Source of the DNA: Parcubacteria bacterium C7867-007 | GTDB lineage: Bacteria > Patescibacteriota > Minisyncoccia > Phycocordibacterales > Phycocordibacteraceae | Reading direction: 5' to 3' | Length of the DNA stretch: 64,000 nt | Assembly (NCBI GenBank): GCA_001189195.1 | Contig: LFCQ01000002.1 | Coordinates: 4,997-68,996 of the forward strand | Shown: piece after piece, positions 3,553 through 61,574 of the stretch | How positions within the stretch are numbered: the stretch's first letter is position 1 | How the letters are laid out: the number at the start of each line of letters is the position of its first letter | Notes under the pieces: model-generated | The model's database searches: none | Told to the model about the DNA's origin: nothing | The model's input: only the letters and a program-made list of their open reading frames with translations | Made by a program: the position numbers and the translations under genes

Positions 3553-3606
3553 GCACGAAGCATAGACGTAGAGTGTTCAAATCTCAGTAAAGAAGTTTTA
3601 AAGAAA

Positions 3607-4050
3607 CTATGACTTTCTGTCCATTGCCCTGTTCGCAAGTTCATCTGCATCCTTATTCTTCTCGCGAGGCACGTGTTCGAAGTGCACTTCTCCAAAGTTT
3701 CGAGCAAGCACATTCTTCACTTCCATGTACCGTGGAATTAAATTTGGGTGCTTCACCTTGTATGCACCTTTGAGTTGTTCAATCACTAACTTGCTATCCA
3801 TACGAATACGAAGTGACATCTGCTGAAAATATCCAGAGGGATATTCTTGATGTAGTTTCACAAGTCCCCGAAGAACTGCTTCATACTCGGCAACATTGTT
3901 GGTGGCAGTACCAAGGTAGTCAGCAACTTCCACCACTCGCTTGCCTGCAGTATCAAACACCACAGCGCCTGCTCCTGCATGTCCCGGGTTGCCCCGTGAA
4001 CCCCCATCAGCGTATAGCGTAAATTCCATGAAACCAGTATACCTGAGCAC
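3607..4050 (-). CDS. rnhA: ribonuclease HI
   Basis: YADGGSRGNPGHAGAGAV RNase H active-site motif plus downstream conserved E and D residues. Confidence 0.8.
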   Translation of the reverse strand: MLRYTGFMEFTLYADGGSRGNPGHAGAGAVVFDTAGKRVVEVADYLGTATNNVAEYEAVLRGLVKLHQEYPSGYFQQMSLRIRMDSKLVIEQLKGAYKVKHPNLIPRYMEVKNVLARNFGEVHFEHVPREKNKDADELANRAMDRKS

Positions 4051-4052
4051 TC

Positions 4053-5816
4053 CTATGCTATTGCAATCAACCGCATACGTACCGGCTGACCTCGGGTATA
4101 GGTATCTCGCTCAAGCGTACCGAGTAGCGTTGCAGGCTTTCCAATCTCTAGACGCTCATAGTCCTTTCCGAGATCCCTACGAGCAAAGAACGTAATAGCT
4201 TCTATGTCCGTACGATTGAATCCATCATCGCGTGTAACACGAACGCGAAGATGTTCCTCTCCTTTTCCGAACCATGAAACCTGTGAGACTTCACAACCCT
4301 GCAATGCAAATAATGGTTTTGGGTTATCCATACCAAATGGTGCAAGCTTCTCCGTACGCGAGAGTAGTGTAGAGAGCTGATCCGCAGAACTGATAGCGTA
4401 ATCAGCCATGGATACTCTATTTGCTAGCGATATCGGTGAGATCTTTCTAAATGCATCACAGAGATGTTCTTCAAAGGTAAATACGGCATCGTCTTTGAGT
4501 GTGAAACCTCCCGAAGCTGCATGACCTCCTGCTTCAACAAAAATATCTTCTGCTAGCGTCATCAACTCAACCACCGACACTCCTTTACGACCAGCACGAC
4601 AAGAACCCTTCGCAGTGGTGGAACCTTCACGCCCCCAAAGAAACACGGGGCGCTCATATTCTTCTGCAAGTGAGTTGGCAACTAGTCCAAGCAAGCCCGG
4701 ACGCCAGTCTGGATCTCCCATCGCAATCACTGGTGGTAGCTCACCATTATTTTCTTCTTTCTTTCGTTCAAGTCGCTCGTGCGCCGCACGGGTGACCGCA
4801 GCACCTGATGCCTTGCGGCTGCGATTTGTTTTCTCAAGTTCTTTTGCAAGCGTATCAGCTCGAGATTCGTCTGAAGTGGTGAACAGTTCAAACGCATCAC
4901 GTGGATCTCCCATTCGAGATGCGGCATTCACACGGGGAGCAATCATGAAACCAACATCATCTTCTGTAATGTATCGCTGATTCACTCGCGCAACACTACA
5001 CAGTTTTTGTAGTCCGATGCGTGGAGACTTTCGCATGACCAACAATCCATACTTCGCGATCACGCGGTTCTCACCCGTAAGAGGTACCATGTCTGCGATT
5101 GTGGAGAGGCCTGCCATGTCCAGTAGCCACTTCTCCCATCCTATTGGTATAGCATCACGACCTTTGAATCCTTTTGCGAGTACCGCGCACACAAGCTTCC
5201 ATGCAAGGCCCCCTCCACAAAAATCTCTGTACGCATTGGTCTCTCCCTCTTGCTTTGGATCAACCACCGCATAGGCAGGCGGCAGCTCCTCAGTACCATC
5301 TGCATTGCGTCGTGGAAGATGATGATCAGTAACTATGACGTCAATCCCAAGTGATTGTGCAAACGCAACATGCTCCACATCAGCAATCCCGCAGTCTACC
5401 GTGATGATGAGTGTCGTACCTTCGTCTGCAAGTTTTTGTATTCCTATTTGATTCAATCCAAATCCTTCTAAGTGACGATGCGGTATGTAGTTGGTAAAGT
5501 TTGCGCCCGCCTTCTTAAAGAAGTCATGCATGATGGTTCCACCAGGAATACCATCGCAGTCATAGTCACTCCATACGGTAATACGTTCTTGTGCATCCAC
5601 TGCATCAGCAATACGTTTCGCTGCGTGACGCATATTGAGTATTAGAAACGGATCACCAATATGTGCATCGTAGTTAGGAGAGAGAAACGCTTCTGCTGCC
5701 TCAGCACTATCGATACCACGCCTAGAAAGTAGACCTGCGGTAAAGTCGTCATAGGCTTTAAGTGCCTCACGCTTCAAGCCCTCTAGTGGTTCATGAAAAG
5801 AAAGCATCGTCTGCAC
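4053..5816 (-). CDS. recJ: single-stranded-DNA-specific exonuclease RecJ
   Basis: DHH motifs (VWSDYDCDGI, VTDHH), DHHA1 region and a C-terminal OB domain; 587 aa. Confidence 0.85.
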   Translation of the reverse strand: MQTMLSFHEPLEGLKREALKAYDDFTAGLLSRRGIDSAEAAEAFLSPNYDAHIGDPFLILNMRHAAKRIADAVDAQERITVWSDYDCDGIPGGTIMHDFFKKAGANFTNYIPHRHLEGFGLNQIGIQKLADEGTTLIITVDCGIADVEHVAFAQSLGIDVIVTDHHLPRRNADGTEELPPAYAVVDPKQEGETNAYRDFCGGGLAWKLVCAVLAKGFKGRDAIPIGWEKWLLDMAGLSTIADMVPLTGENRVIAKYGLLVMRKSPRIGLQKLCSVARVNQRYITEDDVGFMIAPRVNAASRMGDPRDAFELFTTSDESRADTLAKELEKTNRSRKASGAAVTRAAHERLERKKEENNGELPPVIAMGDPDWRPGLLGLVANSLAEEYERPVFLWGREGSTTAKGSCRAGRKGVSVVELMTLAEDIFVEAGGHAASGGFTLKDDAVFTFEEHLCDAFRKISPISLANRVSMADYAISSADQLSTLLSRTEKLAPFGMDNPKPLFALQGCEVSQVSWFGKGEEHLRVRVTRDDGFNRTDIEAITFFARRDLGKDYERLEIGKPATLLGTLERDTYTRGQPVRMRLIAIA

Positions 5817-12711: not shown

Positions 12712-13062
12712 ATGTTAAAAGGACTCCGTTCAGTTATCTATCCCTCTTCAGATTTAGAAACAGACAAGAAGTTTTGGGAGGAAATCACCGGCAAGAAGGC
12801 TTATTTTGATGAACCCTTTTATGTTGGTTTTGATATAAATGGTTTTGAACTTGGCTTGCATCCTGGTGCAGCCGCAGAGGGTATCACCTATCCTGTTTCG
12901 TATTGGCGTGTTGATGACACAAAAGCCGCATCAGAGAAGATTCTTGCTTCAGGCGCTACGCTGCACACCAATCCTGCAGATGTCGGTGATGGTATAACCA
13001 TGACCACCTTCAAAGATAAGGCTGGGAATGTATTTGGAATTATCGAGCACGCATCAAAATAA
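12712..13062 (+). CDS. VOC/glyoxalase-family protein
   Basis: 116-aa paired beta-alpha-beta-beta-beta pattern ending ...GNVFGIIE, typical of the glyoxalase/bleomycin-resistance fold. Confidence 0.6.
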   Translation: MLKGLRSVIYPSSDLETDKKFWEEITGKKAYFDEPFYVGFDINGFELGLHPGAAAEGITYPVSYWRVDDTKAASEKILASGATLHTNPADVGDGITMTTFKDKAGNVFGIIEHASK

Positions 13063-13065
13063 TGG

Positions 13066-14145
13066 TCAGACGGTCTTTCTTGGGATACCTATATAGGTAA
13101 GGAGATCGTCATAGGAGAGACCTTCAACTCGTGCAACTTCTTCATTGAGGTATGCCATTGCTTCACCAAAGGGAGTATCTTGCTGATCTATATCTCCTTC
13201 AAAGTACCTGAACTCTTTACCAATCTCTGCCTTCAGGCTTTCAGGTTCAATACCATCGAGTTCGGCCTGAAAGCGTTCTTTACGCTTCTGCGCGAAGAAT
13301 GGCTGAAACGTTATGGTGCCAAGAAGTCTCTTTCTATACTCTTCTTCTCTACCATCGACGGTTCCCGTGCGAATTGCTTCAACAATGTCACTGTTATCTT
13401 CGATAGCAATCTGCCTACCACTCATCAGTAGCTTCTCAGGTCCATCCATCCCAAAGTCAGCAAGATCAGCCAGTGCAAGAAAACGAGTAGTGAGTGGTGT
13501 TTCTCTGGTGAGCAGCTTTTGAGTCACCCCTTCCTCTGCACTAAAACTTGGAATTGTTACGTTGATGTCTTCAATATCCTTATCAGGATCAATAGTGAAT
13601 ATAGGATCCTTCCCCGCTTTGATAAGAGCGTTGTTTGCAGCTTCCTTTACAACACTAATACGTGCTGCACTTCGTACTTCGCCTTCTCCAATCTTTCGCT
13701 TACGAATACCATCTGCTTCATAAAACACATGCTCAACATCATGTCCTCCTGCTGCAATAACCGCAGCCGCTTTCTCTGCAGCTGATATGCGACCAGGTTC
13801 AAACGCATTGGTGGCATCAATCAGTCGCTCAACTCGTGATGCTACCAATGCACTGTGTTCCCTATTATGAAATGCTAGTTTTACATCCTGATTCTCTGGA
13901 TTCCCATACTTGTTTTCCACAAGATCCAGAAGAATGTCTCGGCTAATCTCACCAACCTTCTCGATACGTGCGTCTCCTTCCAATCCTTCTAGCACTCCTC
14001 CGGCAAATGATTCCGTTATCTTTTCATCAATAGCTTTGGTGAGGGTTTCAATATCACGCTTCTGACGCATATCAGGGTCCTCCAAATACGAGGGTATTGG
14101 TTCCGCAGAACGGATAGGTTCTCTGCTGAGGAGTCGTTCAAACAT
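13066..14145 (-). CDS. hypothetical protein (possible HD-like phosphohydrolase)
   Basis: 359-aa acidic protein with HNREHSAL...GGHDVEH His/Asp motifs; no confident family assignment. Confidence 0.4.
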   Translation of the reverse strand: MFERLLSREPIRSAEPIPSYLEDPDMRQKRDIETLTKAIDEKITESFAGGVLEGLEGDARIEKVGEISRDILLDLVENKYGNPENQDVKLAFHNREHSALVASRVERLIDATNAFEPGRISAAEKAAAVIAAGGHDVEHVFYEADGIRKRKIGEGEVRSAARISVVKEAANNALIKAGKDPIFTIDPDKDIEDINVTIPSFSAEEGVTQKLLTRETPLTTRFLALADLADFGMDGPEKLLMSGRQIAIEDNSDIVEAIRTGTVDGREEEYRKRLLGTITFQPFFAQKRKERFQAELDGIEPESLKAEIGKEFRYFEGDIDQQDTPFGEAMAYLNEEVARVEGLSYDDLLTYIGIPRKTV

Positions 14146-14180
14146 GGCCTGATGGTATCACAATAGGATTCATAGGGTAT

Positions 14181-14210
14181 TGGCAGTCTGGGACGATGTT
14201 TGAACCTTTA
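14181..14210 (+). repeat. tRNA-3'-end-like direct repeat, type A (TGGCAGTCTGGGACGATGTTTGAACCTTTAT)
   Basis: Member of the 11-copy, same-orientation family; 36 bp upstream of the start of the 13066..14145 gene. Confidence 0.8.
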
Positions 14211-14216
14211 TATTAG

Positions 14217-14513
14217 TTACAACACAAAGAATGCTCCCAGAATTCCTAGAATGAGTGCCGTCAGGGAAATTAGATTTTGTCCTACTTTGCTCTTTACCAA
14301 AACCACGTCACCATTCTTAGATTTCATAGTCAGGCGCGGATTCATCGCTACAGATCCTAAGAAAACAAAGTACAGCACGTAACCAAACAAGAAGGGAAGT
14401 AACAGTCCAGAAGTCACGCTGTGCTTAATAAGAAAATAATACGGAAGTAATCCAACCCCAAAAATGATAAGTACCCAGCCTGCAATTTTATTCCACGAAT
14501 AGTTCGAATTCAT
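14217..14513 (-). CDS. small three-TM membrane protein (cassette gene)
   Basis: 98 aa with three hydrophobic helices; bracketed by repeats at 14181 and 14573. Confidence 0.45.
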   Translation of the reverse strand: MNSNYSWNKIAGWVLIIFGVGLLPYYFLIKHSVTSGLLLPFLFGYVLYFVFLGSVAMNPRLTMKSKNGDVVLVKSKVGQNLISLTALILGILGAFFVL

Positions 14514-14572
14514 ACCTGAAGTTAAGCACGTTCACTGGTCTTCAAAATTTAGAGGGTGGATAAATGAGTGCT

Positions 14573-14599
14573 GGCAGACTAGGGATCGAACCTAAATCT
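14573..14599 (+). repeat. tRNA-3'-end-like direct repeat, type B (TGGCAGACTAGGGATCGAACCTAAATCT)
   Basis: Minus-strand sense AGATTTAGGTTCGATCCCTAGTCTGCCA reads as T-stem, TTCGATC T-loop and acceptor 3' strand; overlaps the pilC stop codon; no matching 5' half anywhere, so it is a tRNA fragment. Confidence 0.8.
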
Positions 14600-22329: not shown

Positions 22330-23859
22330 ATGTCTATAAAATTAGTATTGATTCTGCTGGCTATTTCAGGCACTGCAGGTATCGCGCTTGGCTATGTGCT
22401 TCGCTTGCTCATTGCACTGGGCCGTCGTGGTTCCCTGGAACTTGAGGTGAAGCAGCGCATGCTCGAAGCAAAGGAGCGAGCGAACCGCATCATCGCAGAA
22501 GCAGAGGCACGTGGTGAGGAGATCGAGAAAGAAGCCACTGCTCCTCTTAAAGAACGTGAGGCGCGCGTGGAGTCGTATGTAAATCGCCTCACCAAGCGTG
22601 AGGAGTTTCTTGATGAACGTGAACAGAATCTTTCTGAACTCAGCGAGCAAGTGAAAATGCGTGAGAATGAAGCAGCTAACCTTAAGCGTGAGGCAGCAGC
22701 ACTTATCCAGAGTGAGCAAGCTGAACTTGCTCGTATTGCAGAGCTATCTGAAGAAGAAGCCCGTACTAAGCTACTGAGCAATATTGAGCAGCTTCATGAG
22801 AAAGCTATTCTCTCTCGTATCCAGAAGCTTGAGACTAATGGTCGTGAGCGCATAGAAGAAAAGGCACGCGGCATTCTCCTCACTGCTATTCATCGCATGG
22901 GTAACGCGGTAAATACCGAGGTTATGACCCTTTCAGTGCAGCTTCCTTCTGAGGAATTGAAGGGTAAGGTGATTGGTAAAGAAGGTCGCAACATCAAAGC
23001 CTTTGAACGCGCTACCGGTGTAGACGTCATTATTGATGAAGCACCTGATCGTATTAGTCTTTCTTCCTTTGATCCACTGCGTCGCCACATCGCAAAGATT
23101 GCTCTAGAGCGTCTCATTGAGGATGGCCGTATCCAACCCGCAAAGATTGAAGAGATTGTTGAGAAAGCAAAGCAAGAAGTTGAGGTAATCATTAAACAGA
23201 AGGGTGAAGAAGCAGCCTATGAAGTTGGTATTGTCGGACTTGATCCCCGTCTCATCACGCTTCTTGGTCGCCTCCACTTCCGTACCAGCTACGGACAGAA
23301 TGTATTGCAGCATTCTATTGAAATGGCCCACATTGCAGGCATACTGGCAGCAGAACTTGATGCAGACGCTGAAATTGCACGTACTGGTGCCCTCCTTCAT
23401 GACATCGGCAAGGCTGTAGATCATGAGGTACAAGGTACCCATGTAGAGATTGGGCGTCGTATCCTTGAGAAATTCGGTGTAGACAAGAAGGTTATTCAAG
23501 CGATGCAGGCACATCATGAGGAATATCCGTATGAAACACCTGAATCTATCATTGTTCAGGTTGCAGACAGTATCTCTGCAAGTCGTCCTGGAGCACGTCG
23601 TGACACTATAGAGCGCTATCTAGAGCGTCTTGGTGATCTAGAACGTATTGCAAAAGGCTTTGCGGGCGTTGAGAAAGTGTACGCAATACAGGCAGGACGT
23701 GAAATACGTATATTCGTGAACCCAGGAAAGGTATCAGACCTTGAAACACATAAGCTTGCACGTGAAATTGCTGCTCGTATTCAAGAAGAACTAAAATATC
23801 CAGGAGAAATTAAAGTGAATGTGATTCGTGAGAATAGAGTGGTTGAATTCGCACGCTAA
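22330..23859 (+). CDS. rny: ribonuclease Y
   Basis: N-terminal TM helix, coiled-coil, KH domain, HD domain (LLHDIGKA..H). Confidence 0.9.
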   Translation: MSIKLVLILLAISGTAGIALGYVLRLLIALGRRGSLELEVKQRMLEAKERANRIIAEAEARGEEIEKEATAPLKEREARVESYVNRLTKREEFLDEREQNLSELSEQVKMRENEAANLKREAAALIQSEQAELARIAELSEEEARTKLLSNIEQLHEKAILSRIQKLETNGRERIEEKARGILLTAIHRMGNAVNTEVMTLSVQLPSEELKGKVIGKEGRNIKAFERATGVDVIIDEAPDRISLSSFDPLRRHIAKIALERLIEDGRIQPAKIEEIVEKAKQEVEVIIKQKGEEAAYEVGIVGLDPRLITLLGRLHFRTSYGQNVLQHSIEMAHIAGILAAELDADAEIARTGALLHDIGKAVDHEVQGTHVEIGRRILEKFGVDKKVIQAMQAHHEEYPYETPESIIVQVADSISASRPGARRDTIERYLERLGDLERIAKGFAGVEKVYAIQAGREIRIFVNPGKVSDLETHKLAREIAARIQEELKYPGEIKVNVIRENRVVEFAR

Positions 23860-24236
23860 CGCTTTGATTTAATAGCTTTCTGAAGGGTGACATCGAGGGT
23901 GAGGAGTGTATATTCTTCGGCATGGGCAAGCAAAGCAAGATCAACAAATGAAAGCTTGCTTTTTTGTCCAAGAAATTCTTCTATAGTCCTAAGAAATGAT
24001 TCTTCTTTGCTGTGGAGTATCGTAAATGCTGCATTCCCAAGCATTATGCGCAAAAAAGAATCAGCATTCGCTTTCCCAGAGCGCATCATAAGTACCGTTG
24101 CAGTCTCTAGAACGACATACTCATGCACTACTAGCTGCTGTGTTTGCTTGAAGAGAAGCTCTTTGGCCTCTGTATGAAAGTGATCTGCTTCGTTAAAGAA
24201 AGCGATCAGTACACTCGAATCAACGAGTATTCCCAT
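23856..24236 (-). CDS. vapC: PIN-domain toxin (VapC-like)
   Basis: N-terminal DSSVLIA motif and acidic residues positioned as in the PIN fold; overlaps the upstream antitoxin gene by 17 bp. Confidence 0.75.
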   Translation of the reverse strand: MGILVDSSVLIAFFNEADHFHTEAKELLFKQTQQLVVHEYVVLETATVLMMRSGKANADSFLRIMLGNAAFTILHSKEESFLRTIEEFLGQKSKLSFVDLALLAHAEEYTLLTLDVTLQKAIKSKR

Positions 24237-24462
24237 ATACTATTTCGTCGATGCGATTAGAAAGGTCTTTATCACCTTTAAACTTAGCTGTTGCGAGTGC
24301 ATCTTCAAGAGTGCCTGTGCGTTTTGTTGGAAGTATAGGTTCTATGCGAAATACCGGTTTGGAATCACGCACTACCGTAAAGGACTGGCCCTTAAGCGCC
24401 GCATCTGCAATGCGTTTAAGGTTATTTTGAAGTTCCTTAATACCCAGTATGGCTGTTGTCAT
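24220..24462 (-). CDS. antitoxin (Phd/YefM or VapB-like)
   Basis: 80-aa protein immediately upstream of, and overlapping, the PIN toxin gene. Confidence 0.55.
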   Translation of the reverse strand: MTTAILGIKELQNNLKRIADAALKGQSFTVVRDSKPVFRIEPILPTKRTGTLEDALATAKFKGDKDLSNRIDEIVYGNTR

Positions 24463-24544: not shown

Positions 24545-25957
24545 TCATTTTCTATACTTTCCCCACAGACCTCCCTTGGAGGACTTAGCCCTAAAACCCC
24601 AATAGATTCGTATGAACAAGGCAGATATCGTGATGAAGGTGCAAGATGTGCTCGGCGGAACCAAAGCTGATGCAGAGCGCGCTGTAGAGACTGTTATCGA
24701 AAGCATCGTAGGCGGCCTCAAGGCTGGTGACGAAGTATCGATTGCAGGTCTCGGCATTTTCCGTGCAAAGCCTCGTGCTGCACGTATGGCACGTAACCCT
24801 CGCACAGGTGAGCAACTCTCTTCGTCATACATCTCATACCCCTTACCGTACTCAAGATCCTTCATAAGCTTCGTGGGGGCGTTACGAATATGCTTTGGTA
24901 CTGGCAGGTTACCCATCTTCTTTATATCTTCCTGTGCAGCACGTAACGCATCATATGCAGAACGGTCCTTCTTTGCTTGAGCAAGATACGCAACACCGTG
25001 CGCAAGATTAATAGCGCATTCTGGGTATCCAATCACCTCACACGCTCTAAACACCGCATTAGCCACCACCAACGCTGTTGGTTGCGCCACACCAATATCC
25101 TCTGAAGCAAAGATAACCATTCTTCGTGCAATAAACAGTGGATCCTCCCCTGCCTCAACCATGCGTGCCAAGTAATAGATGGCTGCGTCTGGTTGTGAGG
25201 CACGCATACTTTTTATGAACGCACTGATGGTGTCGTAGTGTTCATCTCCTTTCTTGTCATAGCGAAGGTGTGGAGACTCAAGAGCCTTATTGAGAGTCTC
25301 CACAGTTACCTTTCCATACAGACTCGTTGTGCTATCCAAAAGAGTAAGTGCACGGCGTGCATCCCCGTTGGCATATCCCATTAACCATTCAAATGCATCC
25401 TTACCTAGCTTTAGTTTTGCACGTGTAACTATTGCTCGTAGTGATTCTTCTGCGAGTGGTTCTAGTACAAACACTCTGCAACGCGAAAGAAGTGCGGGAA
25501 TAACTTCGAATGAAGGATTTTCTGTTGTTGCTCCAATAAGTGTGAGCCTTCCACTCTCTACATATGGAAGCAGAAAGTCTTGCTGGCTCTTATTAAATCG
25601 ATGAATCTCATCCAGGAACAATACTTTTGGACGTTCGGGTGCAAACGTATCGTTATTAAACGCTTCCTGAAAGGTACTCTTCCCTCCCCTACCCTTCGCT
25701 GGTCCCTCAACTATCTGACGAATATCCTCCTTCCCTGCAGAAACGGCTGAGAGCTCAAACAAATCTGCATCCAATGCTTTGGCATAGATACGCGCGATCG
25801 TCGTCTTACCAGTCCCTGGAGGGCCCCACAGAATGAATGAGAAGCGGTGTCTCTTCTCTGTCGCTACACGTATCGGCTTCCCTTCCCCTACCAAATGTTC
25901 CTGCCCTACGAATTCATCGAGGTTCTTGGGTCGTAGGCGTGCGGCAAGAGGTTCCAT
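24545..25957 (-). CDS. rarA: recombination factor RarA/MgsA (AAA+ ATPase); conserved homology stops near 24819 and the remaining 91 codons read antisense through the HU gene
   Basis: Walker A GPPGTGKTT, sensor motifs and MgsA_C start (...TKLMKDLEYGKGYEMYDEE), after which the sequence is non-homologous. Confidence 0.75.
   Translation of the reverse strand: MEPLAARLRPKNLDEFVGQEHLVGEGKPIRVATEKRHRFSFILWGPPGTGKTTIARIYAKALDADLFELSAVSAGKEDIRQIVEGPAKGRGGKSTFQEAFNNDTFAPERPKVLFLDEIHRFNKSQQDFLLPYVESGRLTLIGATTENPSFEVIPALLSRCRVFVLEPLAEESLRAIVTRAKLKLGKDAFEWLMGYANGDARRALTLLDSTTSLYGKVTVETLNKALESPHLRYDKKGDEHYDTISAFIKSMRASQPDAAIYYLARMVEAGEDPLFIARRMVIFASEDIGVAQPTALVVANAVFRACEVIGYPECAINLAHGVAYLAQAKKDRSAYDALRAAQEDIKKMGNLPVPKHIRNAPTKLMKDLEYGKGYEMYDEESCSPVRGLRAIRAARGFARKMPRPAIDTSSPALRPPTMLSITVSTARSASALVPPSTSCTFITISALFIRIYWGFRAKSSKGGLWGKYRK
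24612..24980 (+). CDS. hup: HU-family DNA-binding protein with aberrant C-terminus (homology ends at about residue 69, near 24818)
   Basis: MNKADIVMKVQDV...GLGIFRAKPRAARMARNPRTGEQL is canonical HU; the DNA-binding arm and C-terminal helix are replaced by unrelated sequence. Confidence 0.6.
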   Translation: MNKADIVMKVQDVLGGTKADAERAVETVIESIVGGLKAGDEVSIAGLGIFRAKPRAARMARNPRTGEQLSSSYISYPLPYSRSFISFVGALRICFGTGRLPIFFISSCAARNASYAERSFFA

Positions 25958-27932: not shown

Positions 27933-27967
27933 GTTGAGAAGTTGAAGCAGTATGTGACTATGCATAC

Positions 27968-27998
27968 TGCAAGTCTGGGACGATGTTGGGGCCTTTCT
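27968..27998 (+). repeat. tRNA-3'-end-like repeat, type A variant (TGCAAGTCTGGGACGATGTTGGGGCCTTTCT)
   Basis: 28/31 identical to the consensus; first boundary of the tRNA-Pro-proximal array. Confidence 0.75.
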
Positions 27999-28068
27999 CG
28001 TCAAATGGACATAGCTCACGAAAAGGTATACGAATATAAAGAGTACAGAAGAAACACGGAGTCGAAAC

Positions 28069-28557
28069 ATGTTTAAAAAGCTTGGGGTCGACATTGGTGG
28101 GGTTATCATCGCTGAGATCAAAGCTGAAGGCGGCCTTGCTCACATCGATGAAGATCATCTCAATGTACTGCCAGTACAGAGTGTGCTTGAGGCTCTCGCT
28201 CAACTCGAACACACATTTAAAGATCAGCGTTTTTTGATCTCAAAGGCACGGGAAGAAGTTGAGGGTAGCTGCCGGTCTTGGCTGCAGCACTACAAGTTCT
28301 TCGAGACGACAGGTATACCTGAAGCTCACCTGCACTTCTGCAGGGAGCGTTCGGGGAAGAAGGCCATCTGCAGAGAGTTGGGTATCACCCATTTCGTGGA
28401 TGATAAGCTCGAGGTACTCAGTCACCTTGTAGGCCTGGTTCCGAACCTTTTTCTCTTCAACCCTGACGAGAACGAGACACGGCCCTATGCTGAGTATCTT
28501 CCTTCCGTAACCGTTGTTCCTGATTGGCGTTCACTGACACAGCTCCTTCAAGAGTAG
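28069..28557 (+). CDS. hypothetical protein, HAD/5'(3')-deoxyribonucleotidase-like with a degenerate motif I (cassette gene)
   Basis: LGVDIGGVI where DxDGV is expected; C-terminal GITHFVDDKLEVL...LFLFNPDEN resembles NT5C-type HAD phosphatases. Confidence 0.4.
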   Translation: MFKKLGVDIGGVIIAEIKAEGGLAHIDEDHLNVLPVQSVLEALAQLEHTFKDQRFLISKAREEVEGSCRSWLQHYKFFETTGIPEAHLHFCRERSGKKAICRELGITHFVDDKLEVLSHLVGLVPNLFLFNPDENETRPYAEYLPSVTVVPDWRSLTQLLQE

Positions 28558-28560
28558 TAT

Positions 28561-28612
28561 CGCTTCGCTGGTGCTGGCATATTCCAGCACCAGCCACTGC
28601 CATACCTTTTTT
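28561..28612 (+). terminator. double hairpin terminator
   Basis: gctggtgctggcatattccagcaccagc stem, then ccatacctttttt / aggtatggctttttt. Confidence 0.5.
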
Positions 28613-28627
28613 AGGTATGGCTTTTTT

Positions 28628-28660
28628 GCTGGCAGTCTGGGACGATGTTGGAACCTTTCT
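28628..28660 (+). repeat. tRNA-3'-end-like repeat, type A consensus (GCTGGCAGTCTGGGACGATGTTGGAACCTTTCT)
   Basis: Perfect consensus copy, directly between a terminator and a promoter. Confidence 0.8.
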
Positions 28661-28666
28661 CTACAA

Positions 28667-28694
28667 TTGACAATGGTATTTATTTACGTATAAT
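28667..28694 (+). promoter_or_regulatory. sigma70-like promoter (TTGACA, 16 bp spacer, TATAAT)
   Basis: Exact consensus hexamers 7 bp downstream of the repeat; RBS AGGAGG follows. Confidence 0.5.
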
Positions 28695-28737
28695 AGTAAA
28701 TGGGTACTTTTGCCCCTTCATATTAGGAGGTCCTCCA

Positions 28738-29133
28738 GTGGAGACCGCAATCAATTGGAACCAAATGCCGTTCAGGGTTCAGGCTGAAATTAACATCGGC
28801 CTGTACAGCGTGGAGAACACGCAACCCTATTTCGCACGATTGACTGAGCGCCTACAGGCGATCATCGATTCGAGCGAACAGTGGCGTGATTCTGCCGAAA
28901 ACGGAAACGACTGGCACGTTTGCCGGCCCGAGGTGAGAGGGTTCGGCGCGCACTTTAAACTGCTTGTGCCCTTCTCCGAAATCAAGCCGAGCCAACTTCG
29001 AGCTTTGTGCTCGTACGTCAACAGACTCGCTGAACGACTGGCTGAAGAAAACGATCCGAACATTGATACGGTCTACGCTGAAGTCGCCTTCAGACCCTGC
29101 AGCACAATCTTTACTAGCGGAAGTAGCTTGTAG
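28738..29133 (+). CDS. hypothetical protein (cassette gene); GTG start preferred over the longer ATG ORF that begins at 28645
   Basis: AGGAGG lies 8 nt upstream of the GTG at 28738, whereas the ATG at 28645 falls inside the repeat; no family match. Confidence 0.4.
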   Translation: METAINWNQMPFRVQAEINIGLYSVENTQPYFARLTERLQAIIDSSEQWRDSAENGNDWHVCRPEVRGFGAHFKLLVPFSEIKPSQLRALCSYVNRLAERLAEENDPNIDTVYAEVAFRPCSTIFTSGSSL

Positions 29134-29191
29134 AGATTCCTTAATGCGCGCCCTGTCTTTGAAAAACAAGATGGGGCGCTTTCGATATCTG

Positions 29192-29224
29192 GCTGGCAGT
29201 CTGGGACGATGTTGGAACTTTTCT
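29192..29224 (+). repeat. tRNA-3'-end-like repeat, type A (GCTGGCAGTCTGGGACGATGTTGGAACTTTTCT)
   Basis: Near-perfect consensus copy. Confidence 0.8.
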
Positions 29225-29239
29225 AAGCTTAGAATAGAC

Positions 29240-29268
29240 TTGACTTTTATATATATTAATAGTATGGT
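29240..29268 (+). promoter_or_regulatory. sigma70-like promoter (TTGACT, 17 bp spacer, TATGGT)
   Basis: Hexamers with an AT-rich spacer downstream of the repeat and upstream of the 29301 ORF. Confidence 0.4.
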
Positions 29269-29300
29269 AGTTTCAGGTATTGAAACGTATGGGGTAAGAA

Positions 29301-29636
29301 ATGGATTTTGCGATTTTGGACGCCCTCGATGCTCTGAAGGAGCAGGAGAAAGCACGACTACGAGAAGAGCTGCCCAAAAGGCTGGCACACTCTCACTTCG
29401 TCTGGTGGCGCCGGATGCTTCATCTGGCCACCTTCTTCAATCACGACCGCATCGACTGCCGCATCCCACTTTGGGTCCGGCTAGTGCTTGGAAACGAAGA
29501 TGCGTTTCAAGCATACACTGATGCGCTTCAAGAAAGATTCGGCTCATCGTTTCAGGTCTATCTGGGACGTCCAATTGGATACCCCGAGGCCCGATACGAT
29601 CGCGTGTGTATCGAGTTTCAAGCCGCAGCCGCCTGA
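29301..29636 (+). CDS. hypothetical protein (cassette gene)
   Basis: 111-aa ORF with its own promoter-like element and a strong terminator. Confidence 0.45.
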   Translation: MDFAILDALDALKEQEKARLREELPKRLAHSHFVWWRRMLHLATFFNHDRIDCRIPLWVRLVLGNEDAFQAYTDALQERFGSSFQVYLGRPIGYPEARYDRVCIEFQAAAA

Positions 29637-29640
29637 AGAA

Positions 29641-29686
29641 GCCCGGAGGATAATTCCCCGCTGCTCCTCCGGGCGGCTTCTTTTTA
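29641..29686 (+). terminator. Rho-independent terminator
   Basis: gcccggagga...tcctccgggc 10-bp stem followed by ttcttttt. Confidence 0.6.
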
Positions 29687-29713
29687 TAAAAGTTCGATAC
29701 CTTTTGAAAGGGG

Positions 29714-29742
29714 TGGCAGACTAGGGATCGAACCTCAAATCT
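29714..29742 (+). repeat. tRNA-3'-end-like repeat, type B (TGGCAGACTAGGGATCGAACCTCAAATCT) fused 3 bp after the tRNA-Pro 3' end
   Basis: Identical to the 14573 copy except for one inserted C; minus-strand sense is a T-arm plus acceptor fragment of a tRNA different from tRNA-Pro. Confidence 0.8.
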
Positions 29743-29745
29743 TTG

Positions 29746-29816
29746 TCGGGGTGCGGGGAATTGAACCCCGTCTAACTGGTCCCAAACCAGTCGTACTACC
29801 GGTATACGACACCCCG
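29746..29816 (-). tRNA. tRNA-Pro (anticodon GGG)
   Basis: 71 nt: acceptor CGGGGTG/CACCCCG, anticodon loop UUGGGAC, T-loop GGTTCAATTCC. Confidence 0.85.
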
Positions 29817-30095
29817 TATGAACGGAAGGATTTCCACACATCCTACGTAGATGCATCCTACCAGATTTTAAATTTTAGCCCACCCGTGCCAAGTATCGAG
29901 TATTTGCACCATCAACACTCTATTAACATCGGTTCCCTCTTTCCGGTGTCCTTACGTGAAGAATTCTTCATATTCAAGACCTTGAATAGTACAGCCTAAA
30001 CATTGATTATTTCTTAAAGTATCTATAAAGAAGCTCTCCAGACACTGTCCTTTATCCCCACTGTCCCCTACGTTGTCCACAGTTATCAACAAATC

Positions 30096-33352: not shown

Positions 33353-34117
33353 TTAGACAGTTATCGAAAGAGGGCAGTGGTCTGAGCCGTAAACAGTACT
33401 GTGAATCTCAGCTTTCTTCACATTCTTAATGAACTCCTTGGACACAAAAAAGTAATCAATACGCCATCCTACGTTCCGTTCACGTGCACGAGTGAGAGTA
33501 TCCCAGTATGTATATGCCTCAGCTTGCTGTGGGTGAAAGTGTCTAAAGGTATCTATATATCCTGCCTCAATAACCTCATCAAGCCACTTACGTTCAATTT
33601 CAAGAAAACCCGTTGTTTTCTCATTTTCCTTTGGCCGAGCCAGGTCAATAGGGAAGTGTGCAGTGTTTACATCCCCACAGAACACAACGGGCTTGGTTTT
33701 CCGTAACTCCTCACAGAATGCAAGAAATGCCTCGTAGTACCGTAATTTAAAGTCCAAGCGCTCTGGCCCTCGTCCTCCATTGGGGAAGTAGATGTTTAGG
33801 AGCCAGAAATCATCATATTCTGCGCCAATTAATCGGCCCTCATCATCAAATTCCTTTATTCCCATACCATATATGACGGAGAGTGGCTCAATACGTGAGT
33901 ATATTGCTACGCCGCTATAGCCCTTCTTTATCTTGCAGGGGGAAAAGAATGCCGAAAAACCCCCTAGATTTAACATGTCCTCTGGTAACTGATCTGGTTC
34001 TGCTTTGATCTCCTGGAAGCAGAATATATCTGGCTTAGTTCCTTTTAAAAAAGCTTCCCAGTAGCCGTTGCGGTGAACTGCACGCAACCCATTTACGTTC
34101 CAGGAGACAATCTTCAT
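33353..34117 (-). CDS. xth: exodeoxyribonuclease III
   Basis: MKIVSWNVNGLRA N-terminus; DxN/E, GDxN and SDH catalytic motifs. Confidence 0.9.
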   Translation of the reverse strand: MKIVSWNVNGLRAVHRNGYWEAFLKGTKPDIFCFQEIKAEPDQLPEDMLNLGGFSAFFSPCKIKKGYSGVAIYSRIEPLSVIYGMGIKEFDDEGRLIGAEYDDFWLLNIYFPNGGRGPERLDFKLRYYEAFLAFCEELRKTKPVVFCGDVNTAHFPIDLARPKENEKTTGFLEIERKWLDEVIEAGYIDTFRHFHPQQAEAYTYWDTLTRARERNVGWRIDYFFVSKEFIKNVKKAEIHSTVYGSDHCPLSITV

Positions 34118-34189
34118 TGCGAGTATTGTACGCTACCTCAACATAAAACTGCACCATCTTTTAGCAGTTATCAGCTATACTCTGTGTAC

Positions 34190-36487
34190 ATGGCCGAGCA
34201 AGAGCTACTAAACTTAATTGCCGTTCGAAGAGCAAGTGGTGTTAATGATACCGACATACGCACGGAGCTAACCTCAAGAGGTTGGGCTGCTCAAGATATA
34301 AATGGAGCACTTGCAATTCATACGATGCAAACATCAGGACATAAGTTTGCAGGTACTAGTTCATACGCAGTAGTGAGGACTGGTGTTCCTTCAAAAGGAG
34401 GTGTTTCCTTCTTTCATCTATTCGTACTCTTTATATTAATAATTTCTGCACCAGGTGCTTATGGGTTAGTTACCCAACTAATTGTTCCCGCAGCGAAAGG
34501 TCAACCGGTTGCGGTAAAGGATTCACTAAAAGGGTATGAACTTCTCCGTGATGTTCCATCTTTGATTCCTGTAGACACATCAGGCATTCTTCCGTCAGCC
34601 AAAAGAGATGTTTCTCCTACAGTTGCAGTTGCGCCAAAAACAACTTCAAGTAGCAACTCTGGTGGTTCAACAAACACACCCGCTCCTGCAAGTACTCCCA
34701 CAGAATCCATTGCTTCGACTGCCGATAAAGGGGTGCCTGTTATAAAGTTCAATTCAACTAGTAGAAATGTATATGCGGGTCGTTTTGTAACATTTGATTG
34801 GAGTGCATCAAACGCTGATTCTTGTACTGCAGAAGGATTTGGTACCGACGGAAAAACAGAAGGGTCAGCACGTGTACGTATTAATGTCGGAGGAATATAC
34901 CGAGTTACGTGTACCGGAAAGGGAGGTAGCGCTAGCAAGATAATTACCATTACATTGCGTACCGATGTGCCGCCCGTACCAGTTGAACCTGCACCGACAC
35001 CCACTCCAACGCCCACTCCAACGCCCACTCCAACGCCCACTCCAACGCCTACTCCAACACCTCAGCCAACACCCACCCCGACTCCAACCCCAACACCGAC
35101 TCCAACACCGACTCCTCCTTCACCCCCATCACCTCCACCTGTTCTTAATCCATCCCCGCCAGGCTCGTATCCTGTCTATTCAGGGTGTCCAGCGCCATCT
35201 TCTTCGTATTCTCGTGTTGTGTACGTTGATCCTGTGAATGGTCTAGACACTGGTGATGGTTCACTAGCAAGACCATACAAGAGTCTCTCGAACTCGTTCG
35301 GTGCAGGTCTCATACGACCAGGTGACCATGTTGTTGCGATGGCTGGTAATCACGGATCGCTTCAACTACTTGGTGGCTTCGGTTCAGGAACGTGGACATG
35401 GTTAGACTTCCAGCCAGGCTCTCTAATGAGCGGCACAAACATAAACAACATTCGCAATCTATTGATTACGAAAATGACCGTTAATAATCCTACAACCGGC
35501 ACAGCCGCAATGGTCTACTTCGCCGGAGGTTCTAATCTTGTTATCGCTGACAGTCTTATCTACGGGGGTACTACACGTGACTCATCAGGCTGGAGCGCAA
35601 CCACTTGGAAGAATGTCAAAAGCGGTGCACAGTTAGACGGACTCAGTTGTGTTTCGTTCCTGCGCAACACCATTACCAATGTTCGTTCAGGTCTTGGAAC
35701 CACTGGAAACAGTGTTAAAGGATTGATTCAGGATAATCGTGTTAAGAACTTTTCTGCAGATGGTATTGATCCCAACGGTTCAGATATCATCGTGTACAAC
35801 AACTCAATCATTGATGAATATGTTGACCAGTCTGAAGGTGACCCAAACCACGATGATGGTATACAAACCTTCACGTCACCAGGAAGACCGTTCAGGAACG
35901 TTGTGATTGACCACAACTGGGTTCAGGAGACCACTGATCCAAGTCGACCGCTCATTGGTGGCATGCAGGGTATTTCATCTTTCGATGGTGCGGGTATGAG
36001 TAACATTCGTATCACGAACAACGTAGTTATCACCTCAGTGTGGCATGGTATGTCATGGTATGGGATAACAAACAGCGTCATCGATCGTAATACGGTTGTG
36101 AACTACTCAGGTAATGGTCGTAACACGTGGCTAATGCTTAATACCGGCAAAGAAGGTGAGGATGCGATCAACAATACGGTTTCTAATAACGTTGCAGTTG
36201 ATATGGTGCTCATTGAAAATGACGGTAACTCATTCACAAATAATATAAAGGTTTCTAATCCATCTGCTGCATTTACTGCATTCAATCCAGCAAGTAACAC
36301 GTATGATCTTTCGCCTAAGGCGGGCGGTATACTTAGCGGAACAGGTGCAGGTGCGACCCTTACTCGCGTTAGTCAGGTGGCATATGCAGAAGCACCGGTA
36401 TATCCTGGTCAACCCCGCACTCAGTTAGCCTCTGTGTTCGCTGCATTCGAATCCTTCCTCAACTGGCTTCAAAATATCTTTAGGTAG
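34190..36487 (+). CDS. large surface protein with TM anchor, PT-repeat linker and right-handed parallel beta-helix domain
   Basis: TM helix near residue 80; (PT)n linker; repeated N/G/T/V-rich about 22-aa units characteristic of pectin-lyase-fold beta-helix; start moved to MAEQELL to avoid overlap with the divergent xth. Confidence 0.55.
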   Translation: MAEQELLNLIAVRRASGVNDTDIRTELTSRGWAAQDINGALAIHTMQTSGHKFAGTSSYAVVRTGVPSKGGVSFFHLFVLFILIISAPGAYGLVTQLIVPAAKGQPVAVKDSLKGYELLRDVPSLIPVDTSGILPSAKRDVSPTVAVAPKTTSSSNSGGSTNTPAPASTPTESIASTADKGVPVIKFNSTSRNVYAGRFVTFDWSASNADSCTAEGFGTDGKTEGSARVRINVGGIYRVTCTGKGGSASKIITITLRTDVPPVPVEPAPTPTPTPTPTPTPTPTPTPTPTPQPTPTPTPTPTPTPTPTPPSPPSPPPVLNPSPPGSYPVYSGCPAPSSSYSRVVYVDPVNGLDTGDGSLARPYKSLSNSFGAGLIRPGDHVVAMAGNHGSLQLLGGFGSGTWTWLDFQPGSLMSGTNINNIRNLLITKMTVNNPTTGTAAMVYFAGGSNLVIADSLIYGGTTRDSSGWSATTWKNVKSGAQLDGLSCVSFLRNTITNVRSGLGTTGNSVKGLIQDNRVKNFSADGIDPNGSDIIVYNNSIIDEYVDQSEGDPNHDDGIQTFTSPGRPFRNVVIDHNWVQETTDPSRPLIGGMQGISSFDGAGMSNIRITNNVVITSVWHGMSWYGITNSVIDRNTVVNYSGNGRNTWLMLNTGKEGEDAINNTVSNNVAVDMVLIENDGNSFTNNIKVSNPSAAFTAFNPASNTYDLSPKAGGILSGTGAGATLTRVSQVAYAEAPVYPGQPRTQLASVFAAFESFLNWLQNIFR
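34988..35140 (+). repeat. in-frame tandem ACnCCn repeats encoding the PTPTPT linker
   Basis: Direct 6-bp repeats of acgccc/acaccg encoding about 50 residues of alternating Pro-Thr. Confidence 0.8.
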
Positions 36488-37411
36488 TTAGTTTTGGCGA
36501 CGAGAATGAAACTTCTTGTGGACCTCACGTAAGTGCGCATCAGTAACGTGAGTGTAGATCTGAGTTGTGGTGATGGATGCATGACCAAGCATCTGCTGTA
36601 CAGAGCGAATATCAGCACCATTGTTCAGAAGATCCGTAGCGAATGAGTGACGCATCACGTGAGGCGTCACTTTCTTTGTAATGCCGGCTTTAGCGGCATA
36701 GATTTTAATCATGCGCTCAACCGATCGGGGGGTGAGACGTGTGGGCACACGTTTAGACGTCTTCTCAGGATCCTTGCTTGGCATGGGCGGAATATTCACA
36801 AAAAGTGCCTCATCCATGTCTTTTCGTGCTTTAAGATACGCTCGAACGGCTGTTTTTGCTTCATCAGAAAGGAATACCACACGAACTTTTTCTCCTTTAC
36901 CTCTAATAGGGAAGTCATCTCTACTTAGATCGAGATCAGTATTGAGGGAACAAAGCTCTGAAACACGAAGTCCTGTTGAGAAGAGAAGTTCGAGTATGGC
37001 CTTGTCTCTGAGGGACTTCTCATCGGTTCCGACTGCTGAAGCAAGTAAACGATTGAGTTCGGTCGGGGAAATAAGGTCCAAGTGGCGTTCTGGTACCTTT
37101 GCAAGCTCAATTCGCTCAGGAGAAAGGCCATCCATACCTCGTTTTCGAAGGAATTTAAGGAATGCTCGTAGAGCAATGAGGTAATAATTCTGGGTACGGC
37201 GCTTCATGGTGCCAGAAACACCCTGTTGGCGGTTTAGCCAGAGCCGAAATTCACGTACCTTTTCCTCCGTTATGTCAGAAACCTCTTTAATAGCCATTTG
37301 ATCAAAGAAACGGCTTAGGTAGTGGTCGTAGTTCTCAATAGTCTTCACTGCACGACCACGCTCAATCTCAGTGTGCTCTAAAAACTGCCGTTTCCAGTCC
37401 TCAATATTCAT
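36488..37411 (-). CDS. tyrosine site-specific recombinase, XerC/XerD family
   Basis: SAM-like N-domain; catalytic R..HxxR..Y context (HVMRHSFAT, LGHASITTTQIYTHV). Confidence 0.85.
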   Translation of the reverse strand: MNIEDWKRQFLEHTEIERGRAVKTIENYDHYLSRFFDQMAIKEVSDITEEKVREFRLWLNRQQGVSGTMKRRTQNYYLIALRAFLKFLRKRGMDGLSPERIELAKVPERHLDLISPTELNRLLASAVGTDEKSLRDKAILELLFSTGLRVSELCSLNTDLDLSRDDFPIRGKGEKVRVVFLSDEAKTAVRAYLKARKDMDEALFVNIPPMPSKDPEKTSKRVPTRLTPRSVERMIKIYAAKAGITKKVTPHVMRHSFATDLLNNGADIRSVQQMLGHASITTTQIYTHVTDAHLREVHKKFHSRRQN

Positions 37412-59342: not shown

Positions 59343-59583
59343 TTGTGAAGAAAGTCTGGGGATTCCCTGTGGATAGCCTGGAGATAAATAGAGGAAGAAC
59401 TATGGGGAGAACTATCTAATAGCGGTAGAGTTTTCCCCACTGTTTCAACCGGCCTCCTTCTATCCACAGTCGTTGTACTCCACTTTCACACAGCTTGAGT
59501 GAAACCTGCGTAAGGGTTTCAGAGCGTATATACTAGAGATATCGCTCTTTCCCCAGTATCCACACCCCTAATAATAAAGAATC
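59343..59583. other. candidate oriC: at least three DnaA boxes plus an AT-rich unwinding tract between dnaA and dnaN
   Basis: CTATCCACA (59460), GTATCCACA (59556), reverse TGTGGATAG (59368); AT-rich aataataaagaatcatgattatcaatatag at the dnaN start. Confidence 0.6.
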
Positions 59584-61196: not shown

Positions 61197-61229
61197 ACTG
61201 GCAGACTGAATTGAAGTTGGAACCTTTCT
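61197..61229 (+). repeat. tRNA-3'-end-like repeat, type A variant (CTGGCAGACTGAATTGAAGTTGGAACCTTTCT)
   Basis: Both ends conserved, central part diverged. Confidence 0.7.
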
Positions 61230-61275
61230 GCAACATGTGGTAGTTTTCGTCCAGAATCGGTAATCGGAGGCTATT

Positions 61276-61551
61276 ATGGCACAACGCAAGAAGAAGTTAC
61301 TCGCTGAAAAAGTGGTTCCGGCGTATTCGGCCCAGTTGTACTCTTCGACTGAAGGAAGACAATTCTTCCCTGACATTCTGCAGGATGCTTTCGGCGAGAA
61401 AACCATCACCGGCTTTCATCGCTATGAACGTGTTCTTGGTGCACTCATTCCTATGGAGGCCCTATTAATGCTCGCTGGGTGCGACCAAGAGATTGATGAG
61501 GGTATGAAGCTTCGTATTAAAAACGCAGCTCGAAACCTCCTTTATTCATAG
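61276..61551 (+). CDS. hypothetical protein (cassette gene)
   Basis: 91 aa, preceded by a GGAGG RBS and followed by a terminator. Confidence 0.45.
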   Translation: MAQRKKKLLAEKVVPAYSAQLYSSTEGRQFFPDILQDAFGEKTITGFHRYERVLGALIPMEALLMLAGCDQEIDEGMKLRIKNAARNLLYS

Positions 61552-61574
61552 CCATGTCTCGATCAAGTTTTTTA

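Follow-up and report, generated by a model that had tools for sequence, protein, structure and literature searches.

The 64,000-nucleotide window analysed here, positions 4,997 to 68,996 of contig LFCQ01000002.1 of Parcubacteria bacterium C7867-007 (assembly GCA_001189195.1), raises the question of how three small genes, each bounded by copies of one repeat, came to lie between a protease gene and a tRNA-Pro gene. We consider it probable, although well short of certain, that they form an array of mobile one-gene cassettes that resembles an integron and is driven by site-specific recombination. An earlier note on this DNA had described three stacked single-gene cassettes and likened them to tandem accretion at a tRNA attachment site. 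The repeats do delimit three open reading frames (ORFs), whereas the identity of the attachment site and the nature of the units turn out differently.

The array at this locus (array 2, 27964-29734) comprises three copies of a 35-nt repeat, A, and one tRNA-like copy, B, which together bound three one-gene units. A has the consensus tTGCTGGCaGTCTGGGACGATGTTGGAACCTTTtT, within which the 20-mer GTCTGGGACGATGTTGGAAC forms the core. Allowing up to three mismatches, the core has six matches in the window, all on the + strand, where 100 shuffles gave an expectation of 0.00. A profile built from 255 A copies (nhmmer) recovers seven A sites and no more in the window, with E values between 2e-13 and 9e-3. 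All lie on the + strand, and they start at 14180, 27964, 28625, 29189, 61213 (degenerate), 61610 and 61970. The leftmost site of array 2, repeat 1 (27964-27998, +; E = 2.9e-6), has a degenerate left half, with ACTGCAA in place of TTGCTGG. Repeat 2 (28625-28661, +; E = 1.9e-13) reads TTGCTGGCAGTCTGGGACGATGTTGGAACCTTTCT and holds the exact 20-mer, and repeat 3 lies at 29189-29226 (+; E = 6.7e-13). The B site (29710-29734, +) joins a GGGGTGG variant of the left half to CAGACTAGGGATCGAACC.

The first cassette encodes a 162-amino-acid protein of the HAD fold (28069-28557, +) with 113 homologue clusters, an atypical DxG motif I and invariant residues D8, G10, K97, D111 and D112. Its AlphaFold2 model has a predicted local distance difference test score of 93, and Foldseek leads from this model to HAD phosphatases and 5'(3')-deoxyribonucleotidases, so that the protein is predicted to resemble nucleotidases and phosphatases of this fold. 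Two terminator-like hairpins on the + strand (28567-28594 and 28599-28621) close the unit just before the TTGCTGG of repeat 2. The second cassette opens with a promoter, TTGACA-16-TATAAT (28667-28694, +), that matches the sigma-70 consensus at 12 of 12 positions. Its ORF had been listed as 28645-29133, with a GTG at 28738, downstream of AGGAGG, as the plausible start; the resulting 131-amino-acid product (28738-29133, +) is an ORFan (an ORF product without known relatives), with no relative except itself among 5.8 billion proteins. The third cassette carries a promoter with 9 of 12 consensus matches, TTGACT-17-TATGGT (29240-29268, +), an ORF for a 111-amino-acid protein of unknown function (29301-29636, +), and terminator hairpins found by a hairpin search in front of B (29635-29680 and 29660-29677, +). 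The earlier note was thus right that at least two of the cassettes have sigma-70-type promoters and that terminators stand at cassette ends, since hairpins precede both repeat 2 and B. None of the seven cassette proteins of the window has a Pfam match above the cut-off, and none matches NCBIfam or PHROGs. The end of cassette 3 also contains GTTCGATACC, which nearly matches, in inverted form, the GGGATCGAAC that lies 23 nt downstream in B (29691-29733); this 3' module recurs in cassettes of two other loci (labelled, like all compared loci, with L-numbers: L011 and L047) and, in degenerate form, in L241.

B provides the clue to the origin of the site. It shares CTGGCAG-CT-GGGA-CGA with A and then diverges into ...CTAGGGATCGAACC. 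Its minus strand, GGTTCGATCCCTAGTCTGCCAG, has the layout of the T-loop, the 3' strand of the T-stem, the 3' acceptor strand and the G discriminator of a tRNA with a U1-A72 pair, and the only dyad within it is the tRNA T-arm. Compared with the 3' ends of tRNA-Gln(ttg) genes in relatives, 23 of 24 positions match. To judge by sequence, B copies the final ~24 nt of tRNA-Gln rather than those of tRNA-Pro, in keeping with the earlier suggestion that the repeat came from a tRNA other than its neighbour; as described below, arrays in Patescibacteria end at real tRNA-Gln genes. The neighbouring tRNA-Pro(tgg) gene (29745-29816, -) is not the attachment site of the array. The site copies the 3' end of tRNA-Gln, the other two arrays of the window adjoin no tRNA, and the proximity of tRNA-Pro is incidental. 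The 3-bp distance that had been given between B and the tRNA-Pro end holds for a longer reading of B, whose likeness to the other B copy extends to ~29741, but not for its core, which stops at 29734. Upstream of tRNA-Pro lies a promoter-like TTGGCA-16-TAAAAT (29865-29892, -), from which tRNA-Pro would be transcribed toward array 2, convergently with cassette 3.

The window holds three such arrays within 48 kb, each of the form A...A...B, and all ten sites (seven A and three B) are co-oriented. Array 1 (14180-14594, +) lies next to pilC and consists of one A, one cassette for a 98-amino-acid membrane protein (14217-14513, -) and one B, which starts exactly at the pilC stop codon (TAG|GTTCGATCC). 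Arrays 1 and 2 have the same B 20-mer, GGCAGACTAGGGATCGAACC, at 14573 and 29715 respectively. Array 3 (61199-62427, +), just downstream of dnaN, contains three small ORFs and a degenerate B. It runs from a degenerate long A through an ORF at 61276-61551 (+), an A at 61610, an ORF at 61648-61938 (-), an A at 61970 and an ORF at 62047-62349 (-) to the degenerate B at ~62404-62427 (copy at 62408). No known RNA family accounts for the repeat: in the window the Rfam matches are confined to the four tRNAs, and in five array-rich loci none falls on the repeat.

The same site is widespread in the ultra-small Patescibacteria. An exact scan for the A core in one genome per species returned more than 115 stretches, and the census counts that follow rest on the matches listed. 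Among these, ~96 loci in Patescibacteria metagenome-assembled genomes contain the core, under labels that include Saccharibacteria, Paceibacterota/Parcubacteria, Nomurabacteria, Wolfebacteria, Kaiserbacteria and Berkelbacteria, and the repeat is nearly identical between these distant lineages. Together with the window, the loci contain 274 A copies, which are always direct within a locus and mostly spaced 300-900 bp apart. They delimit 223 cassettes with a median length of 541 bp; the units span 0.3-0.9 kb and usually hold one ORF. The longest ORF lies on the strand of the repeat in 71 cassettes and on the opposite strand in 115, and in the remaining 37 it is shorter than 70 amino acids. Pfam matches of 150 cassette ORFs include histidine phosphatase, HAD, NUDIX, formyltransferase, methyltransferase, HD, alpha/beta hydrolase, aldo-keto reductase, SDR and GNAT families, among others; no integrase, recombinase or transposase is found among the strong matches of these ORFs. 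About 20 Rhodobacterales matches of the genome scan were set aside as a coding coincidence in alphaproteobacterial prophages rather than arrays. In these prophages (GC content 60-70%), the core falls near the start of a conserved C5-methyltransferase-like ORF (...MEDASLDQAVVWDDVGTFDGRPWRG...), a coincidence that accounts for ~20 genome loci (L003-L117) and for 33 of 34 viral loci (L118-L151). In one array (L088), the last of six cassettes contains a 72-nt match to 23S rRNA positions 2135-2206 (3712-3783, -), which scores 45 bits where the gathering score is 50.

The ends of these arrays link them to tRNA-Gln. Counting only arrays that end inside the fetched DNA, 19 have their right end at an intact tRNA-Gln gene, 34 at a B-type fragment and 26 without a recognisable end. 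The intact genes, called by ARAGORN and scored by Rfam at 63.8 bits in L045, lie on the opposite strand with their 3' ends facing the array, and the closing TTGCTGG of the last cassette coincides with tRNA-Gln positions 70-73 plus the trailer. Since the cassette itself supplies these positions, tRNA-Gln stays intact. A itself is more than a piece of tRNA, since one half of it, CGATGTTGGAACC, is conserved and does not correspond to tRNA.

On its outer side B stops sharply and at a recurrent place, directly after ...TCGAAC(C), at tRNA position 52/53. This edge often lies 0-3 nt from the stop codon of a conserved gene, which is pilC in the window and ychF in four other loci (L056, L078, L083 and L114), and the stop codon of another conserved gene adjoins it in L019, L021, L088 and L102. 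Such a sharp boundary suggests that there is a second breakpoint, fixed at the T-loop edge, or else that B is seeded by another element, one that crosses over in the T-loop.

A subset of A sites, about 10% and including the degenerate one at 61199, continues into a further 33 conserved nt, CCTTTCTGCAACATATGGTAGGTTCTGTCYAGAC. About 18 nt past the core TTGGAA, this extension has an extended -10-like motif, TGnTAGGTT, and it is followed by a ribosome-binding site and the start of + strand ORFs. The downstream proteins are unrelated, and we therefore rejected the idea that the extension is the leader of one gene family. Between its end and the core there is an imperfect inverted repeat (TCTGGG/TCYAGA, TGGAAC/GTTCTG), without compensatory changes. 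The extension may be a built-in promoter, a fuller recombination site, or both. It is also one of two observations that would suit a repeat that does not move at all but acts in regulation, insulation or processing, in the manner of repetitive extragenic palindromic (REP) elements, with the differences in gene content due to ordinary genome flux; the other is that the repeat sits between transcription units, beside terminators and promoters. We regard this explanation as very unlikely. A repeat of this kind should not end its arrays at tRNA-Gln, be flanked by genes in either orientation, be absent from ~900 kb of homologous neighbourhoods in 80 relatives, or mark the exact ends of segments shared by different loci, and the last two of these points are taken up in turn.

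Comparison with relatives indicates what the locus looked like before the array. Eighty metagenomic loci share this neighbourhood, with RNase Y 57-88% identical, and have the gene order tRNA-Gly, protease, tRNA-Pro, tRNA-Gly, tRNA-Arg and CCA enzyme. Seven of the 80 have an empty site: the distance from the stop codon of the protease gene to the 3' end of tRNA-Pro is -1 to 33 bp, and this interval contains no A, B or ORF. A profile search of the ~900 kb of homologous neighbourhoods from the 80 relatives found no A site. The sister genome C7867-008 (L011), with flanks 73-80% identical, has kept the B/tRNA-Pro junction, at which ~7 repeats span 3.8 kb; its cassettes have no nucleotide similarity to those of the window. 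Cassette content at this spot has been completely turned over between the two sister genomes. The earlier proposal that cassette number next to tRNA-Pro might vary among relatives was therefore borne out at both extremes, with relatives that lack all three ORFs and a sister genome with ~7 different cassettes. The other two arrays of the window give a similar picture: at the junction of array 1 the pilC C-terminus (YSLSSxI-stop) is native and eight relatives have no B after pilC, and at the spot of array 3 a relative (L108) has a NUDIX gene and no repeats. Because B is missing from empty sites, it came with the first insertion. The view of B as an ancestral docking site was rejected for all three arrays, given empty sites without it (array 2), pilC relatives without it (array 1) and L108 without it (array 3). 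Comparison of the junctions with empty-site relatives revealed no target-site duplication.

Segments shared between arrays locate the ends of the cassette. Segment 29192-29725 of the window, which takes in repeat 3, the promoter, ORF and terminator of cassette 3 and the beginning of B, corresponds to 5889-6424 of L241 with 78% identity. L241 is from a relative whose pilC is 68% identical, and its array (A at 5508, 5886 and 6411, B at 6870) lies between a 475-amino-acid gene and the triose-phosphate isomerase gene, which are 3 nt apart in the window. The protein of cassette 3 has as its single homologue the one encoded there (P0115, 76% identity), and the promoter is conserved in the L241 copy; this copy is followed by an A site, not by B. 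Similarly, 14181-14575 of the window matches 770-1164 of L045, the tRNA-Gln array of C7867-008, at 93% identity, versus 73-80% for the core flanks, and this homology stops right after ...GAGTGCTGGC; beyond that point B follows in the window and A in L045. L036 and L078 have a cassette in common with the same right boundary, TTGCTGG|, and a cassette of L064 contains a homologue, 55% identical, of the first ORF of array 3. Finally, leftmost sites average 2.31 mismatches to TTGCTGG, as against 1.17 for the others, a degeneracy that would follow if each TTGCTGG moved together with the cassette to its left while the target supplied the leftmost copy. The boundaries of the shared segments thus define the cassette as NN plus the right half of A, the cargo and a closing TTGCTGG. 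On this evidence, cassettes appear to move as units with ends at the repeats, and the exchange point is placed at about tRNA-Gln positions 68-70.

These boundaries also bear on homologous recombination as an alternative, in which the repeat would serve as portable homology and cassettes would be swapped by transformation and RecA, as for the minimal mobile elements of Neisseria, without a dedicated recombinase. The near identity of the repeat across distant lineages, the lack of a recombinase near any array and the presence in the window of genes for ComEC, PilB and PilC all fit such a process. However, the hybrid A/B junctions require crossover in a shared stretch of ~7-10 nt, which is too short for RecA, and a double crossover between repeats can neither add a cassette at a single site nor seed a block without prior homology. 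That the arrays are tied to the 3' end of tRNA-Gln and leave this tRNA exactly restored is, moreover, a hallmark of site-specific integration. We consequently find homologous recombination an unlikely explanation, and conservative site-specific recombination the most likely one in view of the hybrid sites, tRNA restoration, direct orientation and precise boundaries.

In the mechanism that we propose, a cassette would consist of the A right half (NN-GTCTGGGACGATGTTGGAACC-TTT), a promoter if there is one, an ORF, a terminator and the 7-nt left half TTGCTGG. Insertion, excision and swapping would all proceed by conservative site-specific recombination, with a crossover next to TTGCTGG, within the portion of the site that corresponds to the 3' acceptor strand of tRNA-Gln. 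The A borne by a cassette would recombine either with another A or with a docking site that represents the tRNA-Gln 3' end; this would be the real tRNA-Gln gene in many Patescibacteria and a 20-30-nt copy of it, B, in the window. Repeated events would yield the observed layout of A-c-A-c-A-c-B, where c is a cassette. The recombinase would be encoded elsewhere and act in trans. We infer the recombination chemistry, the circular intermediate and the identity of the enzyme, and it is plausible, in light of comEC, pilB and pilC in the window, that DNA enters by natural transformation.

A candidate for the trans-acting enzyme is encoded in the window itself. Its sole recombinase gene (36488-37411, -; Pfam Phage_integrase, 1.3e-41) specifies a tyrosine recombinase of the XerA/XerD type that scores above the NCBIfam cut-off for XerA. 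The gene lies 6.7 kb from array 2, and an orthologue abuts an array in one of 96 loci (L020). A phmmer search with this protein against the ORFs of all loci found none in cassettes and the one orthologue in L020, where an A-A-B array (2859-4535) directly follows the stop codon of the recombinase gene. The position corresponding to that array is occupied in the window by a gene for an 804-amino-acid beta-helix protein (34073-36487). The idea of an integrase encoded beside the arrays was rejected because the ORF clusters of the 96 loci proved to be housekeeping neighbours, the commonest being dnaX beside tRNA-Gln.

Several observations weigh against site-specific cassette mobility. ORF clustering, BLAST and phmmer linked no recombinase to the arrays in ~96 loci, and the A consensus, read by eye, has no dyad of the kind used by simple tyrosine recombinases. 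No phage or plasmid carrying the site was found in scans of IMG/VR, and a phage- or plasmid-borne attP was dismissed because the matches there arose by chance in GC-rich coding sequence (the start of the C5-methyltransferase-like ORF and an unrelated gene). A simple attP x attB reaction would keep the side with the tRNA body in the chromosome, yet the empty sites lack B, so that the model does not account for the seeding of B at a new locus. No circular or excised form was seen, and two independent assemblies are identical; a search for population variation within the organism was likewise fruitless, as the JGI and Logan assemblies equal the window and one of them simply has a break within repeat 2. 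For cassette 1 no promoter was detected, and relatives of its cargo occur elsewhere in repeat-free contexts (L232-L237). These relatives, which have neither this nor another repeat family beside them, also meant that cargo could not serve as a guide to the system.

The lack of linked recombinase genes could also arise if the arrays were decayed islands, that is, classical integrase-bearing elements that accreted at tRNA-Gln, like tycheposons, and have since had their integrases deleted. Such islands would leave behind direct repeats of tRNA 3'-end origin as well as arrays that adjoin an intact tRNA, and scattered partial tRNAs are known from tycheposon islands (bioRxiv 10.1101/2020.12.28.424599). 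Other elements have evidently used the same tRNA: in L006 (6286-6554) and L050 (808-914), ~56-nt fragments of the tRNA-Gln 3' end, reaching into the anticodon stem, are duplicated two to three times outside the real tRNA-Gln, the signature of other, classical integrative elements with a different crossover. Decay does not readily account, however, for 223 units tightly grouped around 0.5 kb, as a rule with a single intact ORF and devoid of integrase fragments, for the conserved non-tRNA half of A, or for whole units with identical ends common to different arrays, and we judge this history quite improbable. As for the tandem accretion proposed in the earlier note, the stacking of units with a tRNA-derived repeat is real, whereas tRNA-Pro is not the site, integrases are absent and the units measure only 0.3-0.9 kb.

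If site-specific cassette mobility is correct, it invites a broader and more tentative interpretation, to which we give somewhat less than even chances, namely that the integron principle was invented independently and the result has spread across Patescibacteria. It is conceivable, to a similar degree, that a 35-nt site derived from the highly conserved 3' end of tRNA-Gln lets single-gene cassettes, many of which bring their own promoters, move as a common pool between lineages as distant as phyla. We would with equal caution entertain the possibility that docking sites mimicking tRNA-Gln can be planted at new gene ends, an arrangement that would equip such minimal genomes with several plug-in sockets for accessory metabolism. 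The unlinked enzyme could be a housekeeping recombinase of the XerA type or an unrecognised protein.

Such a system would matter because Patescibacteria, also called the candidate phyla radiation (CPR), make up a large share of bacterial diversity, with genomes of ~1 Mb, few recognised mobile elements and a patchy accessory metabolism that is unexplained. One conserved site shared by Saccharibacteria, Paceibacteria/Parcubacteria, Berkelbacteria and others would offer a concrete mechanism for this patchiness and, through its known sequence at their ends, mark out accessory genes as a pool that can be mined directly. The recombination site, and eventually the enzyme, might be usable for the genetic manipulation of organisms for which there are almost no tools. 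It would also mean that integron-like cassette platforms arose more than once, here from a tRNA attachment site.

Some other features of the window deserve mention. Beside array 1, two genes at 12712-14145, encoding a 116-amino-acid glyoxalase-family protein and a 359-amino-acid protein without a family match, have no counterpart in relatives, where a 576-amino-acid gene abuts pilC; they may be older cassettes with eroded repeats. The region 57993-60684, which contains dnaA and dnaN and has rnpA and yidC immediately before it on the opposite strand, is the probable origin region, although GC skew is too weak to confirm it. Array 3 begins ~500 bp past dnaN. The arrays on either side of dnaA/dnaN share one orientation and GC skew is uninformative, so that a replication-strand bias of the kind seen with single-strand transposons or attC finds no support. 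A PIN-domain gene (Pfam 1e-10; 23856-24462, -) overlaps by 17 nt an upstream 80-amino-acid ORF without a family match, a pair that looks like a VapBC-type toxin-antitoxin system. A rarA-like ORF (24545-25957) has an odd low-complexity C-terminal extension, and a JGI contig of the same organism has an extra 154 nt at the 3' end of this gene (24748-24814 of the window versus 68-221 of L001), possibly an assembly or indel difference.

How, then, does the system compare with those already known? In a literature search of incomplete coverage, which included the repeat sequence itself, we found no description of cassette arrays built on this repeat or on tRNA-Gln, and a paper on horizontal gene transfer in Patescibacteria contained nothing on the repeat. 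Miniature inverted-repeat transposable elements have terminal inverted repeats and target-site duplications, and neither was found here; all copies are direct, with none inverted in any locus. Minimal mobile elements of Neisseria are exchanged by homologous recombination in conserved flanking genes and have no dedicated bounding site. The arrays share with them, and with phage morons, units of promoter, gene and terminator that lie between conserved genes and vary in content among strains, but here a conserved site bounds every unit. Integrative mobile elements exploiting Xer (IMEX), such as CTX-phi, form tandem arrays in which only the terminal site is genuine, and in the pdif modules of Acinetobacter plasmids the sites are inverted; dif itself is 28 bp long, with two 11-bp arms of partial dyad symmetry and a 6-bp spacer. 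Short bounding sites, the lack of a recombinase gene of their own and a chromosomally encoded enzyme, here a proposed one, are common to these elements and the cassettes. In contrast, A and B have no 11-6-11 dyad (the A consensus judged by eye), are direct rather than inverted and derive from a tRNA end rather than from the terminus.

Closer parallels are found in tRNA islands and in the tycheposons of Prochlorococcus, which have their own tyrosine or serine recombinase, usually a replication module, and cargo of up to at least 10 kb (bioRxiv 10.1101/2020.12.28.424599). Integration at the 3' end of a tRNA with restoration, direct tRNA-derived repeats between insertions, newer insertions that push older ones outward and the supply of flexible genes to a streamlined genome are all likenesses. 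The units described here, however, are 0.3-0.9 kb long and have no mobility gene, so that neither the recombinase with a replication or packaging module and kilobase-scale cargo of a tycheposon nor the integrase per element of tandem accretion is present. An intact tRNA whose own 3' end is the repeat is absent from the window and found at 19 arrays elsewhere. Docking sites are also present away from tRNA genes, in the form of 20-30-nt tRNA-Gln mimics that are absent from empty sites.

The nearest functional analogue is the integron, as both have short, mostly single-gene cassettes that are each bounded by a site, a distinct terminal site (B or tRNA-Gln here, attI there), content that differs fully between sister genomes at a fixed spot, and a cargo of small enzymes and ORFans. 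Integrons have intI, whose product carries an IntI-specific insertion, structured attC sites of 57-141 nt, and promoterless, co-oriented cassettes expressed from Pc. In their place we find no adjacent integrase, a 35-nt sequence derived from tRNA-Gln, many cassettes with their own promoters, genes in both directions (71 on the + and 115 on the - strand) and several arrays per genome. A true integron, or a cluster of attC sites lacking integron-integrases (CALIN) with IntI encoded elsewhere, would explain the single-gene arrays and their diverse small-enzyme cargo, and ~10% of the sites do have an imperfect palindromic extension. We nevertheless regard it as extremely unlikely, because the site is conserved in primary sequence over 35 nt without an R''/L''-L'/R' palindrome, promoters lie inside cassettes whose genes point both ways, and the only tyrosine recombinase of the window reaches 137.5 bits on the integron-integrase model TIGR02249, for which the cut-off is 265. 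None of intI, attC and promoterless co-oriented cassettes was found, whereas variable cassettes at a fixed platform were. Weighing these features, we rate the system as one that appears to work like an integron while departing from it in the defining features tested, and thus as a new variety of site-specific gene cassettes.

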